A stretch of 64,000 bases of DNA from Bacilli bacterium (GTDB taxonomy: Bacteria; Bacillota_I; Bacilli_A; RF39; UBA660): assembly GCA_017435255.1 (NCBI GenBank), contig JAFSFI010000008.1, positions 1,765 to 65,764 on the forward strand, read 5' to 3'. The notes under the pieces were generated by a model. That model was not told the origin of the DNA and did not search any database. It worked only from the letters and a program-made list of their open reading frames with translations. Position numbers and translations under genes: made by a program. Positions 25,810-32,974 of this stretch are shown piece by piece (position 1 is the first letter of the stretch; each line of letters starts with the position of its first letter).

Positions 25810-25927
25810 TGTTAAAAGCTTGTAATAAAACTCTAGGAATGAATATTCTTAGAGTTTTGCTTTTTAAAAAGTGTTTGAAATAATATTAAAATATAGTATA
25901 ATATATTTTGAAAGTAGGAGCGATGAT

Positions 25928-27175
25928 ATGAGAGATATTTATACAGGGATAGATATTGGTAGTGATAGTATTAAAATCGTAATTAGCGAGTTTTTAGATA
26001 ATCGTTTTAATATACTTGCTTCTACTAATGTAAGATCAGCAGGAATCAAGAAAGGTTTGATTGTTGATAAAGACTTGGTTGTGAATTCTTTGAGGCTTGC
26101 CATAAAAGAAATAGAGCCTTCAATAGGAGTAAAAATAGATAAAGCAATTGTCACGGTTCCTTCTAATGATAGAAGATTTAGTGTTGTGGCTGGTACTACT
26201 AGAATTATCAATGAAGATAATGGTGTTAGCGGAGAAGATATAAGCAATGCGCTAGAAGAGTCTGTTCAAGATCAATTATCTCATAAAGAAAGTTTGGTAA
26301 CAGTAATCCCTATTACTTTTTCTGTTGATGATAAGGAAGGGGTACTGGATCCTAGAGGACTATCGGGAGAATATTTGGAAGTTAAGGCGGTACTTGCTAC
26401 TGCCCCTAGTTCTAACATTATTCCTTTTTTAGAAGTCTTTGAGGAGTGTGGAATAGAGGTTGAAGATATTACTTTTGGTAGTATTGGTGACTATTATGAA
26501 GCAAAGACTAGTGATACTGATAAAAGTTTAGGCGCTATTATTAATGTCGGTAGTGATACGGTTAATGTATCTATATTTAATAAAGGGATTATAATTAAAG
26601 AAGCAAATATAGACTTAGGAAGTAAAAATATAGACAAAGATATTTCATATGTTTATGGTGTTGATTTAACTACCTCTAGAACGCTAAAGGAAAATTTTGC
26701 GGTGTGTTCTAGGCGATATGCAGATGTTAATGATGTTTTAGAAATAGAAACCAAAAACGGTGATAAAGTTATTATTAATCAATATGAAATTTCTGAAATT
26801 GTTGAATCTCGTGTTGTGGAATTATTAAAACTTGCAAAAAAACAAATAAATAACTTAACAAAAAGAAAAATAAGTTATATAATTGTTACAGGTGGTGTAA
26901 GTGAATTAACAGGATTTAGTTATGTAGTAGAAAATACTTTAGGGATTACTGCTAATACACTTAATATTACGACGATAGGAATTAGAAACAATAAATATTC
27001 TAGTGCTTCTGGAATAATTAAGTACTATCATGAAAAATTAAAATTACGCGATCAGTCTTCGGACATGTTTGATGAAGAAAAAATAGAGGAAATGTTGAAT
27101 AACAAAAATAATATAAAGAAGACAACAAATGATACGATCGTCAGTAAAGTATTTGGATACTTTATTGGAAACTAA
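25928..27175 (+). CDS. ftsA: Cell division protein FtsA
   Basis: IYTGIDIGSDSIKIVISE, the actin-like ATPase fold pattern and VTGGVSELTGF. Lies immediately upstream of ftsZ. ATG at 25928 follows AGGAG. Confidence 0.9.
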   Translation: MRDIYTGIDIGSDSIKIVISEFLDNRFNILASTNVRSAGIKKGLIVDKDLVVNSLRLAIKEIEPSIGVKIDKAIVTVPSNDRRFSVVAGTTRIINEDNGVSGEDISNALEESVQDQLSHKESLVTVIPITFSVDDKEGVLDPRGLSGEYLEVKAVLATAPSSNIIPFLEVFEECGIEVEDITFGSIGDYYEAKTSDTDKSLGAIINVGSDTVNVSIFNKGIIIKEANIDLGSKNIDKDISYVYGVDLTTSRTLKENFAVCSRRYADVNDVLEIETKNGDKVIINQYEISEIVESRVVELLKLAKKQINNLTKRKISYIIVTGGVSELTGFSYVVENTLGITANTLNITTIGIRNNKYSSASGIIKYYHEKLKLRDQSSDMFDEEKIEEMLNNKNNIKKTTNDTIVSKVFGYFIGN

Positions 27176-27187
27176 GGAGGAATTGGA

Positions 27188-28285
27188 ATGTTTGGCGCAT
27201 TAGAAATGGATCAATTAGCAAAAATTAAAGTTATAGGTATAGGTGGTGGCGGAGGAAACGCCGTTAACCGTATGATAGAGTCAGGTGTAAAAGGTGTTGA
27301 GTTTATTGTTGCAAATACAGATTTGCAAGTATTAAATAATTCACAAGCTGATGTTAAGATTCAGATTGGTGCTAATCTTACAGATGGATTGGGAGCCGGT
27401 GCTAAGCCAGAGGTTGGTAGAGAAGCTGCTGTTGAATCTAAAAAAGAGATAGAAGAAGCATTAGCCGGTGCAGACATGGTGTTTGTTACTTGTGGAATGG
27501 GTGGAGGAACAGGTTCTGGTGCTGCACCAGTAGTTGCTGAGATCGCACAAGCGCTAGGTGCTCTTACTGTTGCTATCGTTACTAAACCATTTACTTTTGA
27601 AGGAAGAAAAAGAATGGAAAACGCATTAGCAGGTATTGAAGAATTAAAGAAACATGTAGATACTTTAATTGTTATTCCAAACGATAGATTAAGAGAAATT
27701 ATTGATAAAACAACTCCTATGCTAGAAGCATTTAAAGAAGTAGATAATGTATTACGTCGTGGTGTACAATCAATTTCGGATTTAATTGCTGTAGTTGGTC
27801 TTGTTAACCTTGACTTTGCGGATGTAAAAGCAGTCATGGAAAAATCAGGAAACGCTATTATCGGTATTGGTATCGGTATGGGAGAAGATAGAGCTATTGA
27901 GGCTGCCAAACAAGCAGTGTCTAGTCCACTTTTGGAAACATCGATTTCTGGTGCTACAGATGCAATTATAAATATTACTGGTGGTATGAACTTAACATTA
28001 TTTGAAGCAGAACAAGCTGCTGAAGTTGTAAGGGCTGCTGCTAATACTGATATTAATACAATCTTTGGATCTGTTATTAATGAAAACCTTACTGATGAAG
28101 TAATAGTTACTGTTATTGCTACTGGATTTGATAAAGCAAATAAAGAACCGCTTTATAATACTGCACAAACTCCAACTAGAAGAATTAAAGAGGTAGAAAC
28201 TAAAGAAACTCCTATAATTGATGAGGAAGATGATTCTGATGGAGAATATGAATTGCCTCCATTCTTAAGAAATAGAAATTATTAA
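27188..28285 (+). CDS. ftsZ: Cell division GTPase FtsZ
   Basis: [17 protein letters not shown], the tubulin signature [22 protein letters not shown], and a C-terminal ELPPFLRNR tail. Confidence 0.97.
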
Positions 28286-28307
28286 GAGCTAATGCTCTTT
28301 TTTTCTT
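28284..28307 (+). terminator. Rho-independent terminator after ftsZ
   Basis: AAGAGC-TAAT-GCTCTT hairpin followed by a T-run. Confidence 0.65.
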
Positions 28308-28360
28308 TTGTTGCAAGATAAAATGTGGTAAAATTAAATATAGAATATGGAGGTATCTGT

Positions 28361-29833
28361 ATGTTTGACAAGTTAATAAATCTGTTAGAAGAAAAAATTT
28401 CTGTATTAGATCAAAAAAGACGTGATGAAGAACATAAAATTGAAGAGATTAGACAGTTACATAAAGTTATCAGAACAATCAAAAATAATCCTTTTGGATT
28501 AGCTGAATTAAATGATGAGCAAGCTAGTTATGTGGTTAATGCTTTGGGTTTAGGTGATAGTTATTATGAAACTATTAAAAAGTATAAAGTTATTTATGAA
28601 GCTTATTTACAATTTGGAAGAGATGTTATTCCTCAGATTGAAGTTGTTGAAGAATTTCTTGATGATATAAATAAAAGATTGGATAATAGGAGTACTACTT
28701 TAACAGATGAAGTTGTAGAGCATCAATATACAATTATTCAACATGAAGAGCACAGTAGACTGATGGATGAGTTGAGAGAACCAGAAAAAATTGTTTCTAA
28801 AATGGAAGTTTTATTTAAAATATTAAACGAGTCATCATTATCAACTGGTGAAAAAAATGAAATTTTATTTTATATCAACTCTAAAAACAATTCTTTGTTT
28901 GAAAAACTGTCATTAGAAGATAGTGTTGTTAATACAGGTGATAATAATGGACTCGAAGAAGAAATTATTGCTATTGAGAATCGCTTAGAAGAACAGTTTA
29001 ATCCATCAGCGTTGAATAGTATAAAAGCGGTAGCTAAATTATTATTGGATTGTAAAACTCAAGAAGAACTAGAAGATGTTATCGATGAATGGAAATTTGC
29101 ATTTGGTGATGAATCCATTACTAAAGTTGTTGATGCTTTGATTTCTCTAATGGATATTGAAACTTTAACAATAAAAGGTCTTTTTGATCAAGATACTCCA
29201 GGTTATGAGGAAGAACTAGCAAATATAGAGACTCATATTCAATTTTTAAGAGAGTATAAAGATTCGATCGAACAAGTTAACGATATTGAGAATAATTCAG
29301 CTGTAACAGAGGTTTCATCTAACAAAGTGGAACAGGCATTGGCTGAGTACAATGATGATCCATTATCTACTCCTAATATTGTGCTATTCTTAAGCGATGC
29401 AATAAATAGGGATATAAAATCAATATATGATAATGAAACGTTGGAAGATGTTTTCTTGCTTATTGAACAATTGAAAAACGATAATGTAGAAGATAGAAGT
29501 AAAATGGGTGGAGGAACAGATTTAGAAAAACTTAAACCAAAATCTAAAGGAAAACAAGCGAGGGTTGTATTTGTTAAGTTAGACAGTAATATTTATGGAA
29601 TATTACACGTTTCTGGTAAAAAAGGTGATACTCCTAAGGGATGGATTACAACATTGGAAGCAAGAAGAAATAATTGTGATATTGATAATTTGAGAAAGAC
29701 AATAAATGAGCCGGAAGTTTTAGAGATTTATGTTAATAAAACTAAGGAAATATCTGCTAAATTAAAATCTAGAGTATCTGCTTTACATAATCATAATAAA
29801 GAAACTTCCGTAGGTGGTGAATCTAAGAAATGA
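28361..29833 (+). CDS. Hypothetical 490-aa protein: coiled-coil/acidic N-terminal region with a RelE/Gp49(HigB)-like C-terminal domain
   Basis: ATG at 28361, 9 nt after GGAGG. The C-terminal segment GGGTDLEKLKPKSKGKQARVVFVKLDSNIYGILHVSGKKGDTPKGW resembles the G-GGL-K-R..KGKGK..R[IV][IV]Y...LL..YGK pattern of Gp49/HigB-type RelE-fold toxins (from memory). Confidence 0.5.
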   Translation: MFDKLINLLEEKISVLDQKRRDEEHKIEEIRQLHKVIRTIKNNPFGLAELNDEQASYVVNALGLGDSYYETIKKYKVIYEAYLQFGRDVIPQIEVVEEFLDDINKRLDNRSTTLTDEVVEHQYTIIQHEEHSRLMDELREPEKIVSKMEVLFKILNESSLSTGEKNEILFYINSKNNSLFEKLSLEDSVVNTGDNNGLEEEIIAIENRLEEQFNPSALNSIKAVAKLLLDCKTQEELEDVIDEWKFAFGDESITKVVDALISLMDIETLTIKGLFDQDTPGYEEELANIETHIQFLREYKDSIEQVNDIENNSAVTEVSSNKVEQALAEYNDDPLSTPNIVLFLSDAINRDIKSIYDNETLEDVFLLIEQLKNDNVEDRSKMGGGTDLEKLKPKSKGKQARVVFVKLDSNIYGILHVSGKKGDTPKGWITTLEARRNNCDIDNLRKTINEPEVLEIYVNKTKEISAKLKSRVSALHNHNKETSVGGESKK

Positions 29834-30075
29834 GTGATTTAAAAGAAAAACAACTTCTAGTTGGCGATGAAATATTTAAAGAAGTTATTGATAAAAAAGT
29901 AAAAACTAATATAACTACTAATAATATTTGTTCGGATTTAAATTTAGATGAAGAAGAAGTTACAAATTATTTTTTGGGACTATCCAAAACCAATTTGCCA
30001 TTGGGTATAAAAATTTTAGATTATCTTGAAGATAAAGAAGCAAATTCAAGTAGTTATGATAATACAAATATTTAG
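29830..30075 (+). CDS. Small protein with a probable helix-turn-helix
   Basis: ATGA overlap with the upstream stop. ITTNNICSDLNLDEEEVTNYFLGLSKTNLPLGIKILDYL looks like an XRE-type HTH. Sits in the HigA-like position. Confidence 0.45.
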   Translation: MSDLKEKQLLVGDEIFKEVIDKKVKTNITTNNICSDLNLDEEEVTNYFLGLSKTNLPLGIKILDYLEDKEANSSSYDNTNI

Positions 30076-30092
30076 ATAATTGAGGTAATTTT

Positions 30093-31942
30093 ATGGTAAG
30101 AAAAAATGGTGTAATTGATAAAATTATTAGTTTGATTGAAAAAAGTATAGAACAATCGAAAGAGAGTTTGATGAGGCAAGCGATTTATCTAGTGTTTTAA
30201 ACTTAATAAACAAAGTATTTCCGGAAGAAGAGCAAGAAGATTTTTCATCCTTAAAAGGTATATCAAGTGATGAGCTTCAACAATTAGTTTCTCTTTTGGT
30301 TAAGGAAGATGAAAGGGAATTAAAAACTGTTATAAATGCTGCATATTTTCTTGTTACAAACGATATTGATTTAGTAGAAAGACAGAAAGAAGATTTAAGA
30401 GAATTAAATTATCGAGCAAATATAAAACGTAGAAATTTAAGAAAGTCTATTGAACGTCGTGAAACAAATGTAGAGACAATAGAAATCTATAGCGCTTTGG
30501 AAAAAGAATTAAATGGCTTTGCTAAAGACGGATATATTCCTAACGATACAATTAAAAGAGTTTTTGAACTTTTAAAGATTAAAGAAGAAGAACAAGGGGA
30601 ATATCTAAAACAAATATTAATGTTTAATCTTGAACGTTTTACTTTAGTTAATTCAAGGGCTAAAGATGGCGAGCAAATTATTGAAATGTTAGAAGTTACT
30701 AGTACAGATTTAGAAAAACCTGAAATTGCATTGGAGCAAATGCAACCAATATTTGAAAAACATGGCTATGATATATCATTACTTAGTAATGAATTGATAG
30801 AATTATTAACCAGACAAGGAAATTTGTCTAAAATTGATAGCATATTTGAAAGTATTAAAAGAAATAAACTTGATTTTGTAAGTAATAGTAAAGAATCTAT
30901 GCCGTTCTTAACTAATTTATTGGTATATTCTAATAGTGACATTATTGACGAAGCATGTAAGATTTTTAAAGATGCCCATGTAGATAGTAAATTTATAAGG
31001 AATTATAAACCAATATTTTTTCCATCTTCTGATGAAGTAGATGATAGTAAGAATATTACTAGAAGAAGAAACCCGTCAACTATTATTGATCATGGTGAAA
31101 AAGTTGAGGATAGTAATCGAAATAAAGTTATAGGTAGACATAGAGATTTTGTCGAAAATTTGAATTTATTAGAAAGCCTTGGATATGACAGAAAATTTTT
31201 ATTAGAGCGTCAAACTGCAATAATAACGTTACCACATTCTACACTTTGTAGGCATTTAAAAGAGTTAAAGTTATATGAATTTCCAGTAGATAGTGGTAAA
31301 TTTCCTTTATCAACGCTAGGTTCATATAGAATTATGGAATATACTGATGCGTTTATAGAACTTGGTGAAGAACAATATATATATAATTTTCCTTCAAAGT
31401 TATGGGGATTTAGAGATGCATATTTTGATAGGTTGTATACTTTTAAAAAGTTAGGAATTCCATATCAGTATGAGACTAATGGTAATCCAAAGTTGTTGCA
31501 ATCGGTTATTGATTCTGATACTTCGCATGGCGTTACCAAAGAAAAAGTATCTAGTACTGTTCCAAGGGATGCAGAGGTTATTTTAAGAGGAAATAAATAT
31601 AGTGAATTACTTGATAGATGTTTACCAATAGAGATTTCGCAAGAAACATTAGAATCCTCAATGGTTAGACAACTTGATTCTAAATACAAAAGAACTAACG
31701 CTACATATGACATTAATGGTGTATTAATATCTCGTAGGAAGTTGCTACGTAATTATGAATTTTTAATTAATACTGATTTAATTTCTTCTGACGAAAAAGA
31801 TCCAGAACAAATTTTGCTAGTTTCTGCAATTTCTAAATCAAGATTAAGTATTGCTGAAATTGAAAAAGTAAATAACGGTTTAAATAGTTGTATGGTAGTA
31901 GGAGGAGGCAAAGATGGAATTCTTAAAAAACAAGGGATTTAG
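30093..31942 (+). pseudogene. Frameshifted (or slippage-dependent) gene for a ~616-aa helical-repeat protein; the ORF-track entry 30296..31942 is its downstream frame
   Basis: ORF 30093..30200 (RBS GAGGT, MVRKNGVIDKIISLIEK...) and the downstream frame, open from 30140, overlap across an A6 tract (30139..30144). One extra A would give a continuous ...SLIEKKYRTIEREFDEASDL... The N-terminus parallels that of the 28361 protein. Confidence 0.5.
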
Positions 31943-32204
31943 TGATGAACAAATTAATTTGCTTTTAAGTGTATACGACAAAGAGATAATTGAGACGTTT
32001 TTACTTAATAAAGATAATGTAGTAGAAGTAATTGATTATTTAAAAGAATATGGGATAAAAGATATACCAAAATTAATGATAGAAAGAATAGATATATTTT
32101 ATTTACCATATAAAGTTATAGATGAGTTGTTTTCTCATTATGAAAAAGATAGTGTAATAGCAACACTTGATTATGATGCATCAATATTTGATGAAATGAT
32201 TTAA
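31914..32204 (+). CDS. Hypothetical 96-aa protein with two mTERF-like helical motifs
   Basis: Overlaps the upstream gene by 29 nt. FLKNKGFSDEQINLLLSVYDKEII and VIDYLKEYGIKDIPKLMIERIDIFY fit the L..xG[FI]s...I..ll...p.i repeat. Confidence 0.45.
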   Translation: MEFLKNKGFSDEQINLLLSVYDKEIIETFLLNKDNVVEVIDYLKEYGIKDIPKLMIERIDIFYLPYKVIDELFSHYEKDSVIATLDYDASIFDEMI

Positions 32205-32327: not shown

Positions 32328-32597
32328 ATGGCTTTAACTAAAGAAGTAAAAGCAAGAATCATTAAAGATTTTGCTAAAAACGAAAAAGATACTGGTTCAG
32401 CTGAAGTTCAAATTGCTATTCTTACAGAAGAAATTAATATTTTAACTGAACATTTAAAAGAACATATCCATGATTATCATTCTAGACGTGGTCTTTTAAG
32501 AAAAGTTGGACAAAGAAGAAGCTTATTAAATTACTTAGCTAAAAACGATATTAACTCATACCGTGAAGTAATTAAGAAGTTAGGATTAAGAAAATAA
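32328..32597 (+). CDS. rpsO: 30S ribosomal protein S15
   Basis: 89 aa. [49 protein letters not shown] is canonical S15. RBS GGGAGG. Confidence 0.97.
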
Positions 32598-32608: not shown

Positions 32609-32638
32609 AGACACTCTTTTTTGGGTGTCTTTATTTTT
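32609..32638 (+). terminator. Rho-independent terminator after rpsO
   Basis: AGACAC...GTGTCT hairpin followed by a T-rich run. Confidence 0.6.
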
Positions 32639-32653
32639 GAGAGGGGGATTAAA

Positions 32654-32974
32654 ATGGATACAAATAGAGTATATTTTGGTAGTGTATATCAGGTTGATTC
32701 TATAGGTACTAGTTATTATGATCATACTGTTCATTTGAATTATGTGAAACCAGCGCTTGTATTTGTGAAAGCTAATATATTTGGTAGACAATATATGTTA
32801 GATTTAAATACAAAAGAAAAATATCCATTCAGGACAGGAAGAATTCCTAAAGTTGGAACTTTACATGTATCAACAAGATCACTTAGATCATTTAATGAAG
32901 TTACTAAAAACGAAAGAGAAGATTTACCAAGGAAAATGATTAAACAAATGGGAAATAAATACTTATCAAAATAG
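32654..32974 (+). CDS. Hypothetical 106-aa basic protein between rpsO and pnp
   Basis: ATG at 32654 follows GAGGGGG. The ORF-track start at 32621 lies inside the rpsO terminator and is rejected. No recognised domain. Confidence 0.5.
   Translation: MDTNRVYFGSVYQVDSIGTSYYDHTVHLNYVKPALVFVKANIFGRQYMLDLNTKEKYPFRTGRIPKVGTLHVSTRSLRSFNEVTKNEREDLPRKMIKQMGNKYLSK

Follow-up and report, generated by a model that had tools for sequence, protein, structure and literature searches.

The window analyzed here is a stretch of 64,000 nucleotides (nt) from a Bacilli bacterium (GTDB lineage Bacteria; Bacillota_I; Bacilli_A; RF39; UBA660; GenBank assembly GCA_017435255.1, contig JAFSFI010000008.1, positions 1,765 to 65,764 of the forward strand), with a GC content of about 28% and a strong and uniform GC skew. 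It carries four co-directional genes in the order g1-g2-g3-g4, here called the cassette, each of which is preceded by a Shine-Dalgarno sequence (Table 1). An initial annotation, made from the sequence alone, had described them as an operon in which a RelE/Gp49-like domain is combined with a small helix-turn-helix (HTH) protein and mTERF-like repeats; its coordinates for g1, g2, and g4, the ATGA overlap at 29830, and the 29-nt overlap at 31914 are all correct, and the peptides that it quoted for g1, g4, and the body of g3 were each found in the sequence. The parts of the cassette belong to known fold families, and none of the libraries searched contains the four-gene arrangement, an N-terminal domain shared by g1 and g3, or the g3/g4 family. 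When the four proteins were scanned against Pfam, NCBIfam, PHROGs, and PADLOC, nothing significant came up, in line with the earlier statement that no known system matches.

Table 1. Features of the cassette and its upstream edge (window coordinates; RBS, ribosome-binding site; AF2, AlphaFold2; pLDDT, predicted local distance difference test; dN/dS, ratio of nonsynonymous to synonymous substitution rates)
Feature	Position	Strand	Remarks
Terminator-like hairpin and T-run 3' of ftsZ	28284..28299	+	Upstream edge of the cassette
Candidate sigma-A promoter, TTGCAA-17-TTAAAT	28311..28339	+	Putative; read by eye
Alternative extended -10, TGgTAAAAT	28326-28334	+	Putative; read by eye
g1	28361..29833	+	490 aa; dN/dS 0.17; AF2 pLDDT 79.6
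g1 N-domain (aa 2-189)	28364..28927	+	Homologous to the g3 N-terminus
g1 RelE/HigB (Gp49)-like domain (aa 313-421)	29297..29623	+	Fold search, profiles, conservation
g1 C-terminal helical extension (aa 425-481)	29633..29803	+	AF2 model; after the toxin-like fold
g2	29830..30075	+	81 aa; ATGA overlap with g1; acidic tail; HigA position
g3 5' fragment	30093..30200	+	35 codons; good RBS; ended by frameshift
A6 run breaking g3	30139..30144	+	1-nt deletion relative to A7 of the closest relative
g3 main frame	30140..31942	+	600 codons; AF2 pLDDT 81.2; dN/dS 0.16
g3 mTERF-like repeat region (aa 225-438 of the 600-aa frame)	30812..31453	+	hhalign, Foldseek
g3 C-terminal module, two beta-hairpins	31457..31894	+	Most conserved part of the family
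g4	31914..32204	+	96 aa; 29-nt overlap with the g3 frame; dN/dS 0.09

The AF2 model of g1 consists of long helices (residues 2-311), a beta-alpha-alpha-beta-beta-beta domain (314-418; strands 340-343, 388-393, 401-406, and 411-418, helices 347-354 and 358-372), three further helices, and a disordered tail. The top PDB matches of this model in Foldseek were the HigB chains of S. pneumoniae HigBA (6af4; probability 0.95-0.99, TMt 0.51-0.56), followed by V. cholerae HigB2 (5jaa_D, TMt 0.52), the rest being generic coiled coil, and a domain profile drawn from six genera (11 proteins) matched YoeB (7v6w) at E=0.016. The Pfam Gp49 model (PF05973, gathering score 23.9 bits) scored the g1 of the window at 12.9 bits (E=0.12), below the cut-off, and matched nothing in the window's own genome at E≤0.001. 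It weakly matched 6 of 10 close g1 homologues (best E=0.0075) and passed the cut-off in large proteins of two other genera (G138, 347 aa, 27.1 bits; G187, 531 aa, 24.6 bits), with the g1-like protein of G055 at 23.1 bits. A hidden Markov model (HMM) of the g1 domain in turn matched the 347-aa protein of G138 at 6.7e-8 and a canonical stand-alone 128-aa Gp49 toxin at 1.2e-5. A profile of the whole of g1 matched no PDB sequence, and hhalign of the domain against a two-sequence Gp49 template was weak (probability 21%). The 6af4 and 5jaa fold matches, the YoeB profile match, and the Gp49 matches in relatives support the assignment of the C-terminal domain of g1 to the RelE/HigB (Gp49) fold, at the level of the predicted fold and via transitive sequence links, which bears out the proposal of the initial annotation that g1 ends in a RelE/Gp49-like segment.

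Within the domain, R401 and K421 are invariant across genera, and K420, R435, and N410 are nearly so. RelE-like domains were detected in 61 of the 301 genomes of the bacterial family of the window, almost always within ORFs (open reading frames) of 250-552 aa and not as stand-alone toxins of about 90-130 aa. Canonical HigB(Gp49)-HigA(XRE) pairs (117-128 aa and 129-131 aa; L051 187-940 and L055 814-1644) coexist in the same family, so the large RelE-domain proteins are a separate, additional lineage.

The initial annotation had noticed a similar N-terminal helix in g1 and g3, and this similarity extends over some 190 aa that form a homologous domain: hhalign aligned g1 2-189 with g3 4-192 at a probability of 97.1% (E=6.3e-11). 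With narrow alignments the comparison was not significant, and the relation emerged only with a profile of 45 g3 sequences, which matched the first 200 residues of the window's g1 at E=1.1e-12 and, in five further genomes, the gene that precedes g3. In this genus, the two proteins further have similar ends, ...VGGESKK in g1 (29789-29830) and ...GGGKDGILKK in g3 (31900-31939), that is, a conserved Gly-Gly, 1-5 residues, and Lys(-Lys); these tails are disordered in both models and are not preserved in other genera.

The AF2 model of g3 begins with long helices, continues with short helices of 4-13 residues arranged in an array (198-440; pLDDT above 85, with a low-confidence linker at 299-328), and ends in a C-terminal part with two beta-hairpins. 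The C-terminal module has the motif Y-x-[FI]-x-G-[VI]-x-I-S-R-x-K-x-L-R-N, and the family-wide invariants of the C-terminal part are D403 and E407 (D.FIELGE), Y413, Y523, and S531 and K534 (GVxISRxKxLRN). A common N-domain of ~190 aa with differing C-termini, a small acidic protein after each, fast evolution, and no signal peptide would be compatible with LXG/type VII secreted polymorphic toxins, in which a common N-terminal trafficking domain is joined to variable toxin C-termini and g2 and g4 would be immunity genes. We consider this extremely unlikely: the C-terminus of g3 is the most conserved part of its family and not a variable one, and the LXG model of Pfam matches none of the four cassette proteins. 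The type VII idea was rejected because the 88%-complete genome encodes no WXG100 or EssC; its single FtsK/SpoIIIE ATPase is a single-domain protein of 750 aa.

For the g3 model, Foldseek returned TAL effectors, MTERF3, MTERF1, and BurrH, none of them significant, and the best match other than a TAL effector was MTERF3 (3m66, probability 0.84, TMt 0.49; MTERF1 3n7q, probability 0.38; E=0.8-2.4). Against viral structures, generic tape-measure-like helices were the only matches. An exhaustive profile search with g3 collected 372 clusters (clustered at 50% identity; 186 of them with E≤1e-10), almost all of 560-690 aa, and no Pfam domain was found in ten diverse relatives. The Pfam mTERF model (PF02536, cut-off 23.1 bits) matched nothing in the window's own genome at E≤0.05, g3 and g4 included; it was the top sub-threshold match for g4 homologues of two other genera (19.1 and 17.8 bits), and one of seven close g4 homologues matched it at E=0.056. 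Genuine mTERF genes, scoring above the Pfam cut-off, are present in 5 of the 61 related genomes searched, all members of the window's bacterial family, and in 0 of 14 control genomes. When profiles were compared with hhalign, g3 225-438 was related to the large genuine mTERF genes (probability 87.9%, E=3.3e-6), and g4 to the small (82%, E=1e-5) and large (63%, E=7e-5) ones, these being pairwise E-values from moderate-depth profiles with the Pfam-positive mTERF genes found in this bacterial family as templates. The g4 profile against PDB found designed helical repeats only and no mTERF entry. Given the hhalign relation to genuine mTERF genes from their own bacterial family, divergent mTERF repeats are the best interpretation of the middle part of g3 and of g4 as a whole, as judged from profile comparison and without formal Pfam membership. 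The mTERF likeness seen in the initial annotation thus stands at the level of profile-profile comparison (82-88%) and of the best non-TAL-effector fold match, MTERF3; formal membership does not, since the Pfam model fails to reach g3 and g4.

The genuine mTERF genes occur in tandem arrays or in "large plus small" pairs that mirror g3 and g4. Examples are a tandem array in G042 (L045 4304-8474, E=4e-20) and a pair of 391 and 127 aa in G074 (L046 3258-4816); further genes were found at L047 2651-3607 and L049 2398-2802. A minus-strand four-gene cluster in G015 (L050 1643-7268) encodes proteins of 403, 94, 608, and 766 aa, of which the 94-aa protein is g4-like (g4 HMM, E=7e-5), and the 766-aa protein, to which the g3 profile and the mTERF model of Pfam each give a weak match, may be intermediate between the two families.

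The small gene g2 is conserved within the genus and does lie in the HigA position, as the initial annotation had it; the XRE-type HTH proposed for it found sub-threshold matches only. Pfam gave no HTH_3 match, the weak library matches (Pfam, NCBIfam) were DUF2316 (0.058), CYNS_N (0.27), and cyanase (0.044), and the g2 profile against PDB matched a TetR HTH at E=0.053 and the XRE-like 3op9 at E=0.55. The g2 HMM matched genuine HigA at 8e-5, in a set of only 25 proteins, and hhalign against a template of two HigA sequences gave a probability of 4% (E=0.011). Three other genera have a 64-66-aa protein with weak HTH matches in the g2 slot. A comparison of g2 with g4 found them unrelated.

Members of the bacterial family are gut Bacilli whose genomes are about 1 Mb in size; Spo0A is present in 289 of the 301 genomes. 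Within it, g3 was found in 59 of the 301 genomes and 49 of 214 genera; 20 high-quality genomes of the family lack it even at E=0.5, and among about 270 other Bacilli genomes sampled there was none. The conserved core of the cassette is formed by g3 and g4. In other genera (27 loci), a g4 of 92-103 aa almost invariably comes directly after g3 (573-715 aa), and the upstream partner varies. The partners include g1 with g2, a 452-510-aa protein with a 65-aa HTH-like one, 138-170-aa with 613-662-aa proteins, a 330-366-aa RelE-domain protein that overlaps g3 and has no g2, and others. The RelE-like domain and g3 co-occur in 24 genomes (odds ratio 3.8, p=4e-5), in 21 of which a RelE-domain gene adjoins g3. 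The position of the cassette differs between genera and is mostly amid housekeeping genes. A mobile-element origin was rejected: tblastn came back empty from 50,697 phage and 72,556 plasmid records, as did a scan of IMG/VR viral contigs.

Another explanation of the locus is a canonical HigB-HigA pair g1-g2 beside unrelated g3-g4 genes. The toxin-first order, the ATGA overlap of g1 and g2, the HigB fold in g1, and the weak profile match of g2 to genuine HigA all agree with it. It is nevertheless very unlikely, given the homologous N-domain common to g1 and g3, the adjacency of RelE-domain proteins to g3 in 21/24 genomes, in five genera without g2, the size of g1 (490 aa and not about 100 aa), and the separate existence of canonical Gp49-XRE pairs in the family. 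The initial annotation had seen a HigBA-like pair as the core; the pair conserved across genera is instead g3 and g4, and g2 is lacking in many variants.

Compared with the closest relative, dN/dS is 0.08 for g2 and 0.09 to 0.17 for the other three genes (Table 1), versus 0.003 for ftsZ and 0.015 for pnp, with dS alike across all these genes. Thus, g1 to g4 are real genes under purifying selection. At genus depth, amino acid identity is 93-97% for ftsZ, 92-96% for pnp, and 88-90% for rpsO in the flanks, versus about 40% for g1, 45-54% for g2, about 42% for g3, and about 65% for g4 (with the closest relative included, 93-99.7% for ftsZ versus 40-83% for g1 and g3), and the cassette changes 10-50 times faster than ftsZ, rpsO, and pnp at the protein level. 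The gene order is maintained in at least 10 contigs at 40-83% identity; the order ftsA-ftsZ-g1-g2-g3-g4-rpsO was found in gut metagenome contigs and also in a genome assembly of Hadza origin that is labelled "uncultured Bacilli bacterium," and one related contig has other genes upstream of the cassette. The identity and dN/dS patterns therefore indicate that the cassette is inherited in place and constrained, yet fast evolving.

The initial annotation treated g3 as a single ORF. In the window, however, the frame that starts with the ATG at 30093 runs into a stop codon at 30200, and the long frame does not open until 30140. They are joined at a run of six A residues (A6, 30139-30144), and the quoted peptide "DKIISLIEKKYRTI" crosses the -1 frame change at this run, for which one more A would be needed. 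The closest relative, with proteins 81-83% identical, has an A7 run and an intact g3 of 613 aa, and the remaining g3 homologues are all undisrupted (607-620 aa). Because a Logan contig and an ENA scaffold, each 100% identical to the window, also have A6, this state stems from the reads of the sample and is not an assembler artifact. The ...LIEKKYRTIE... of the homologues would be restored exactly by -1 slippage on GAA-AAA-A or by an additional A in the mRNA. The frameshift may reflect a pseudogene, phase variation, or recoding.

Upstream of the cassette lie ftsA (25871-27175) and ftsZ (27188-28285). The candidate promoter site of Table 1 was not listed in a consensus promoter scan, and a terminator scan of the sequence saw no terminator-like hairpin inside the cassette. 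Many spore formers have spoIIGA-sigE-sigG directly after ftsA-ftsZ, which would fit proteins with a structural or regulatory role in sporulation or cell division, such as coat- or septum-associated coiled coils, whose RelE and mTERF likeness would be functionally meaningless. A distant homologue between spoVA genes and sigF/spoIIAA (L014), another near a gerE-like gene (L017), long helices and fast evolution as in coat proteins, and the Spo0A-positive state of the family point the same way. We regard this explanation as unlikely, though, since the cassette is present in only about 20% of Spo0A-positive genomes, its location varies widely between genera, the proteins have no signal peptides or membrane segments, and the sole promoter candidate seen is sigma-A-like. 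With Spo0A in nearly all genomes of the family (289/301), profiling against this gene does not discriminate.

Downstream of g4 are a promoter-like site, rpsO (32328-32597), a small ORF (32621-32974), and pnp. Relatives keep the small ORF in this position (106-132 aa, without a Pfam family), and a distant genus (L041) has a 209-aa counterpart. The pnp gene is divided into two ORFs in two related metagenome contigs (L002 9269-11485 and L003 7295-9378), unlike in the window and elsewhere.

Building on the folds and homologies, gene linkage, purifying selection, fast evolution, and patchy, family-restricted distribution demonstrated here, we propose that the cassette is an RNA- or ribosome-directed, toxin-antitoxin-derived accessory chromosomal module of one bacterial family, a reading to which we give a probability of about 35%. 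In such a module, the shared ~190-aa helical N-domain would pair g1 with g3, perhaps as a heterodimer, and the HigB/RelE-type domain of g1 would be the effector, acting either as an RNA- or ribosome-binding module or as an endonuclease. The mTERF-type solenoid of g3 together with g4 would bind nucleic acid, possibly RNA, and supply target specificity as a targeting adaptor, by analogy with MTERF4, which brings NSUN4 to the mitochondrial ribosome. The slot beside g1 would be that of an antitoxin or regulator, with g1 as a presumed toxin and g2 potentially neutralizing it, and the role of the whole would probably be conditional translation shutdown in a stress response or in phage defense.

Several observations weigh against this proposal. 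No acidic, His, or Tyr residue, as is typical of many RelE/YoeB active sites, is conserved across genera in the g1 domain, and a RelE-like domain within a 490-aa protein may not fit the ribosomal A site. Many g3-g4 cassettes have partners without a detectable RelE domain, and g2 is weakly HTH-like and missing from many cassette variants. The frameshift in g3 may have crippled the module in this strain. Inside a genus, the cassette keeps its synteny and appears to be inherited vertically, its neighbors are housekeeping genes and not defense islands or mobile elements, and the sole match in PADLOC-DB v2 was a chance-level one of g2 to RmrA (E=0.019).

Nearly as likely is a non-toxic, lineage-specific complex of RNA metabolism or ribosome biogenesis, in which the mTERF-like g3 and g4 and the RelE fold would be pure binding modules; it could handle rRNA or mRNA or act in transcription termination like organellar mTERFs, as a fast-evolving housekeeping accessory. 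Within the genus the site directly upstream of rpsO-pnp is stable, and the distant genus L041 again has the cassette near rpsO-pnp; in other genera the neighbors are often rpoA-rplQ, rpmE, rpsT, rpoBC, rnc/rnj, serS, trmB, jag-mnmE, or rplU-rpmA, although in 1-Mb genomes most neighbors are housekeeping genes anyway. Purifying selection, the lack of a conserved catalytic acid, His, or Tyr in the RelE-like domain, and the absence of any sign of mobility in the phage, plasmid, and viral-contig searches are consistent with such a complex. They have to be set against the absence of the cassette from about 80% of the family's genera, even at E=0.5, its extreme divergence compared with the flanks, the exchange of the upstream partner between genera, and the frameshift in this strain, which has no obvious consequence. 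We rank this complex just below the toxin-antitoxin-derived module.

A more specific form of the toxin-antitoxin-derived module, which we put forward as doubtful, would be an undescribed system in which the g3 solenoid, with g4 as a cap or extension, recruits the g1 HigB-type RNase via the shared dimerization domain to a specific RNA or to the ribosome, with g2 or the C-terminal helices of g1 as a safety catch. If this specific form is real, it would constitute a new class of toxin-antitoxin, defense, or translation-control module, and mTERF repeats, deemed eukaryote specific, would have a functional bacterial reservoir in gut Bacilli. If the module is active, it would present a classical toxin fold as a domain of a large scaffold that is targeted by a helical-repeat adaptor, a design absent from current toxin-antitoxin and defense catalogues. 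Proteins with mTERF repeats have been described from metazoans and plants, as eukaryote specific or organellar (PMC7826268). Because the literature treats them in this way, the genuine mTERF genes and the divergent sister family (372 clusters) in uncultured gut Bacilli bear on the origin of the repeat, and the small bacterial mTERF-repeat proteins offer themselves as study objects.

Among known systems, HigB/HigA (PF05973; 6af4, 5jaa) resembles the cassette in the predicted fold of g1 313-421, in the toxin-first order with a 4-nt stop/start overlap, in the small, weakly HTH-like gene that follows g1, and in the conserved Arg and Lys-Lys of g1, which are at strand positions where Gp49 toxins have them. 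It differs in that the fold of g1 is set within 490 aa (preceded by 310 aa and followed by about 65 aa), that the window's g1 reaches 12.9 bits versus the Pfam cut-off of 23.9, that the partner gene g2 is dispensable in other genera, and that g1 is linked to, and shares a domain with, g3, a solenoid protein of 610 aa.

Fused or multidomain toxin-antitoxin defense proteins, such as those of the CapRel type, carry a toxin-type fold followed by a helical extension in the same chain and are accessory and fast evolving. The helical extension after the toxin-type fold of g1 could likewise be a built-in regulator, and the cassette genes are accessory and fast evolving as well; the toxin family of g1 is a different one, however, the context is not a defense island, and PADLOC gave no match.

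TAL effectors and BurrH were the top Foldseek matches of g3 (E=0.4-2) and share with its predicted structure a superhelical array of short helix pairs, but the TM-scores are 0.15-0.24 and the probabilities 0.1-0.4, and g3 has no near-identical 33-35-aa repeats and no sequence relation to them.

With the mTERF proteins (MTERF1, MTERF3, and MTERF4-NSUN4), g3 and g4 have in common degenerate ~30-aa helical repeats of the pattern L..xG[FY]s..xI..ll...P.il, a predicted solenoid, a profile-profile relation, and a possible function as an adaptor for an enzyme-like partner. They differ from them in being missed by the Pfam model, in the N-domain and the unique, conserved beta-hairpin C-terminal module that g3 adds, and in their bacterial host, as opposed to the eukaryotic and organellar setting described for the family (PMC7826268).

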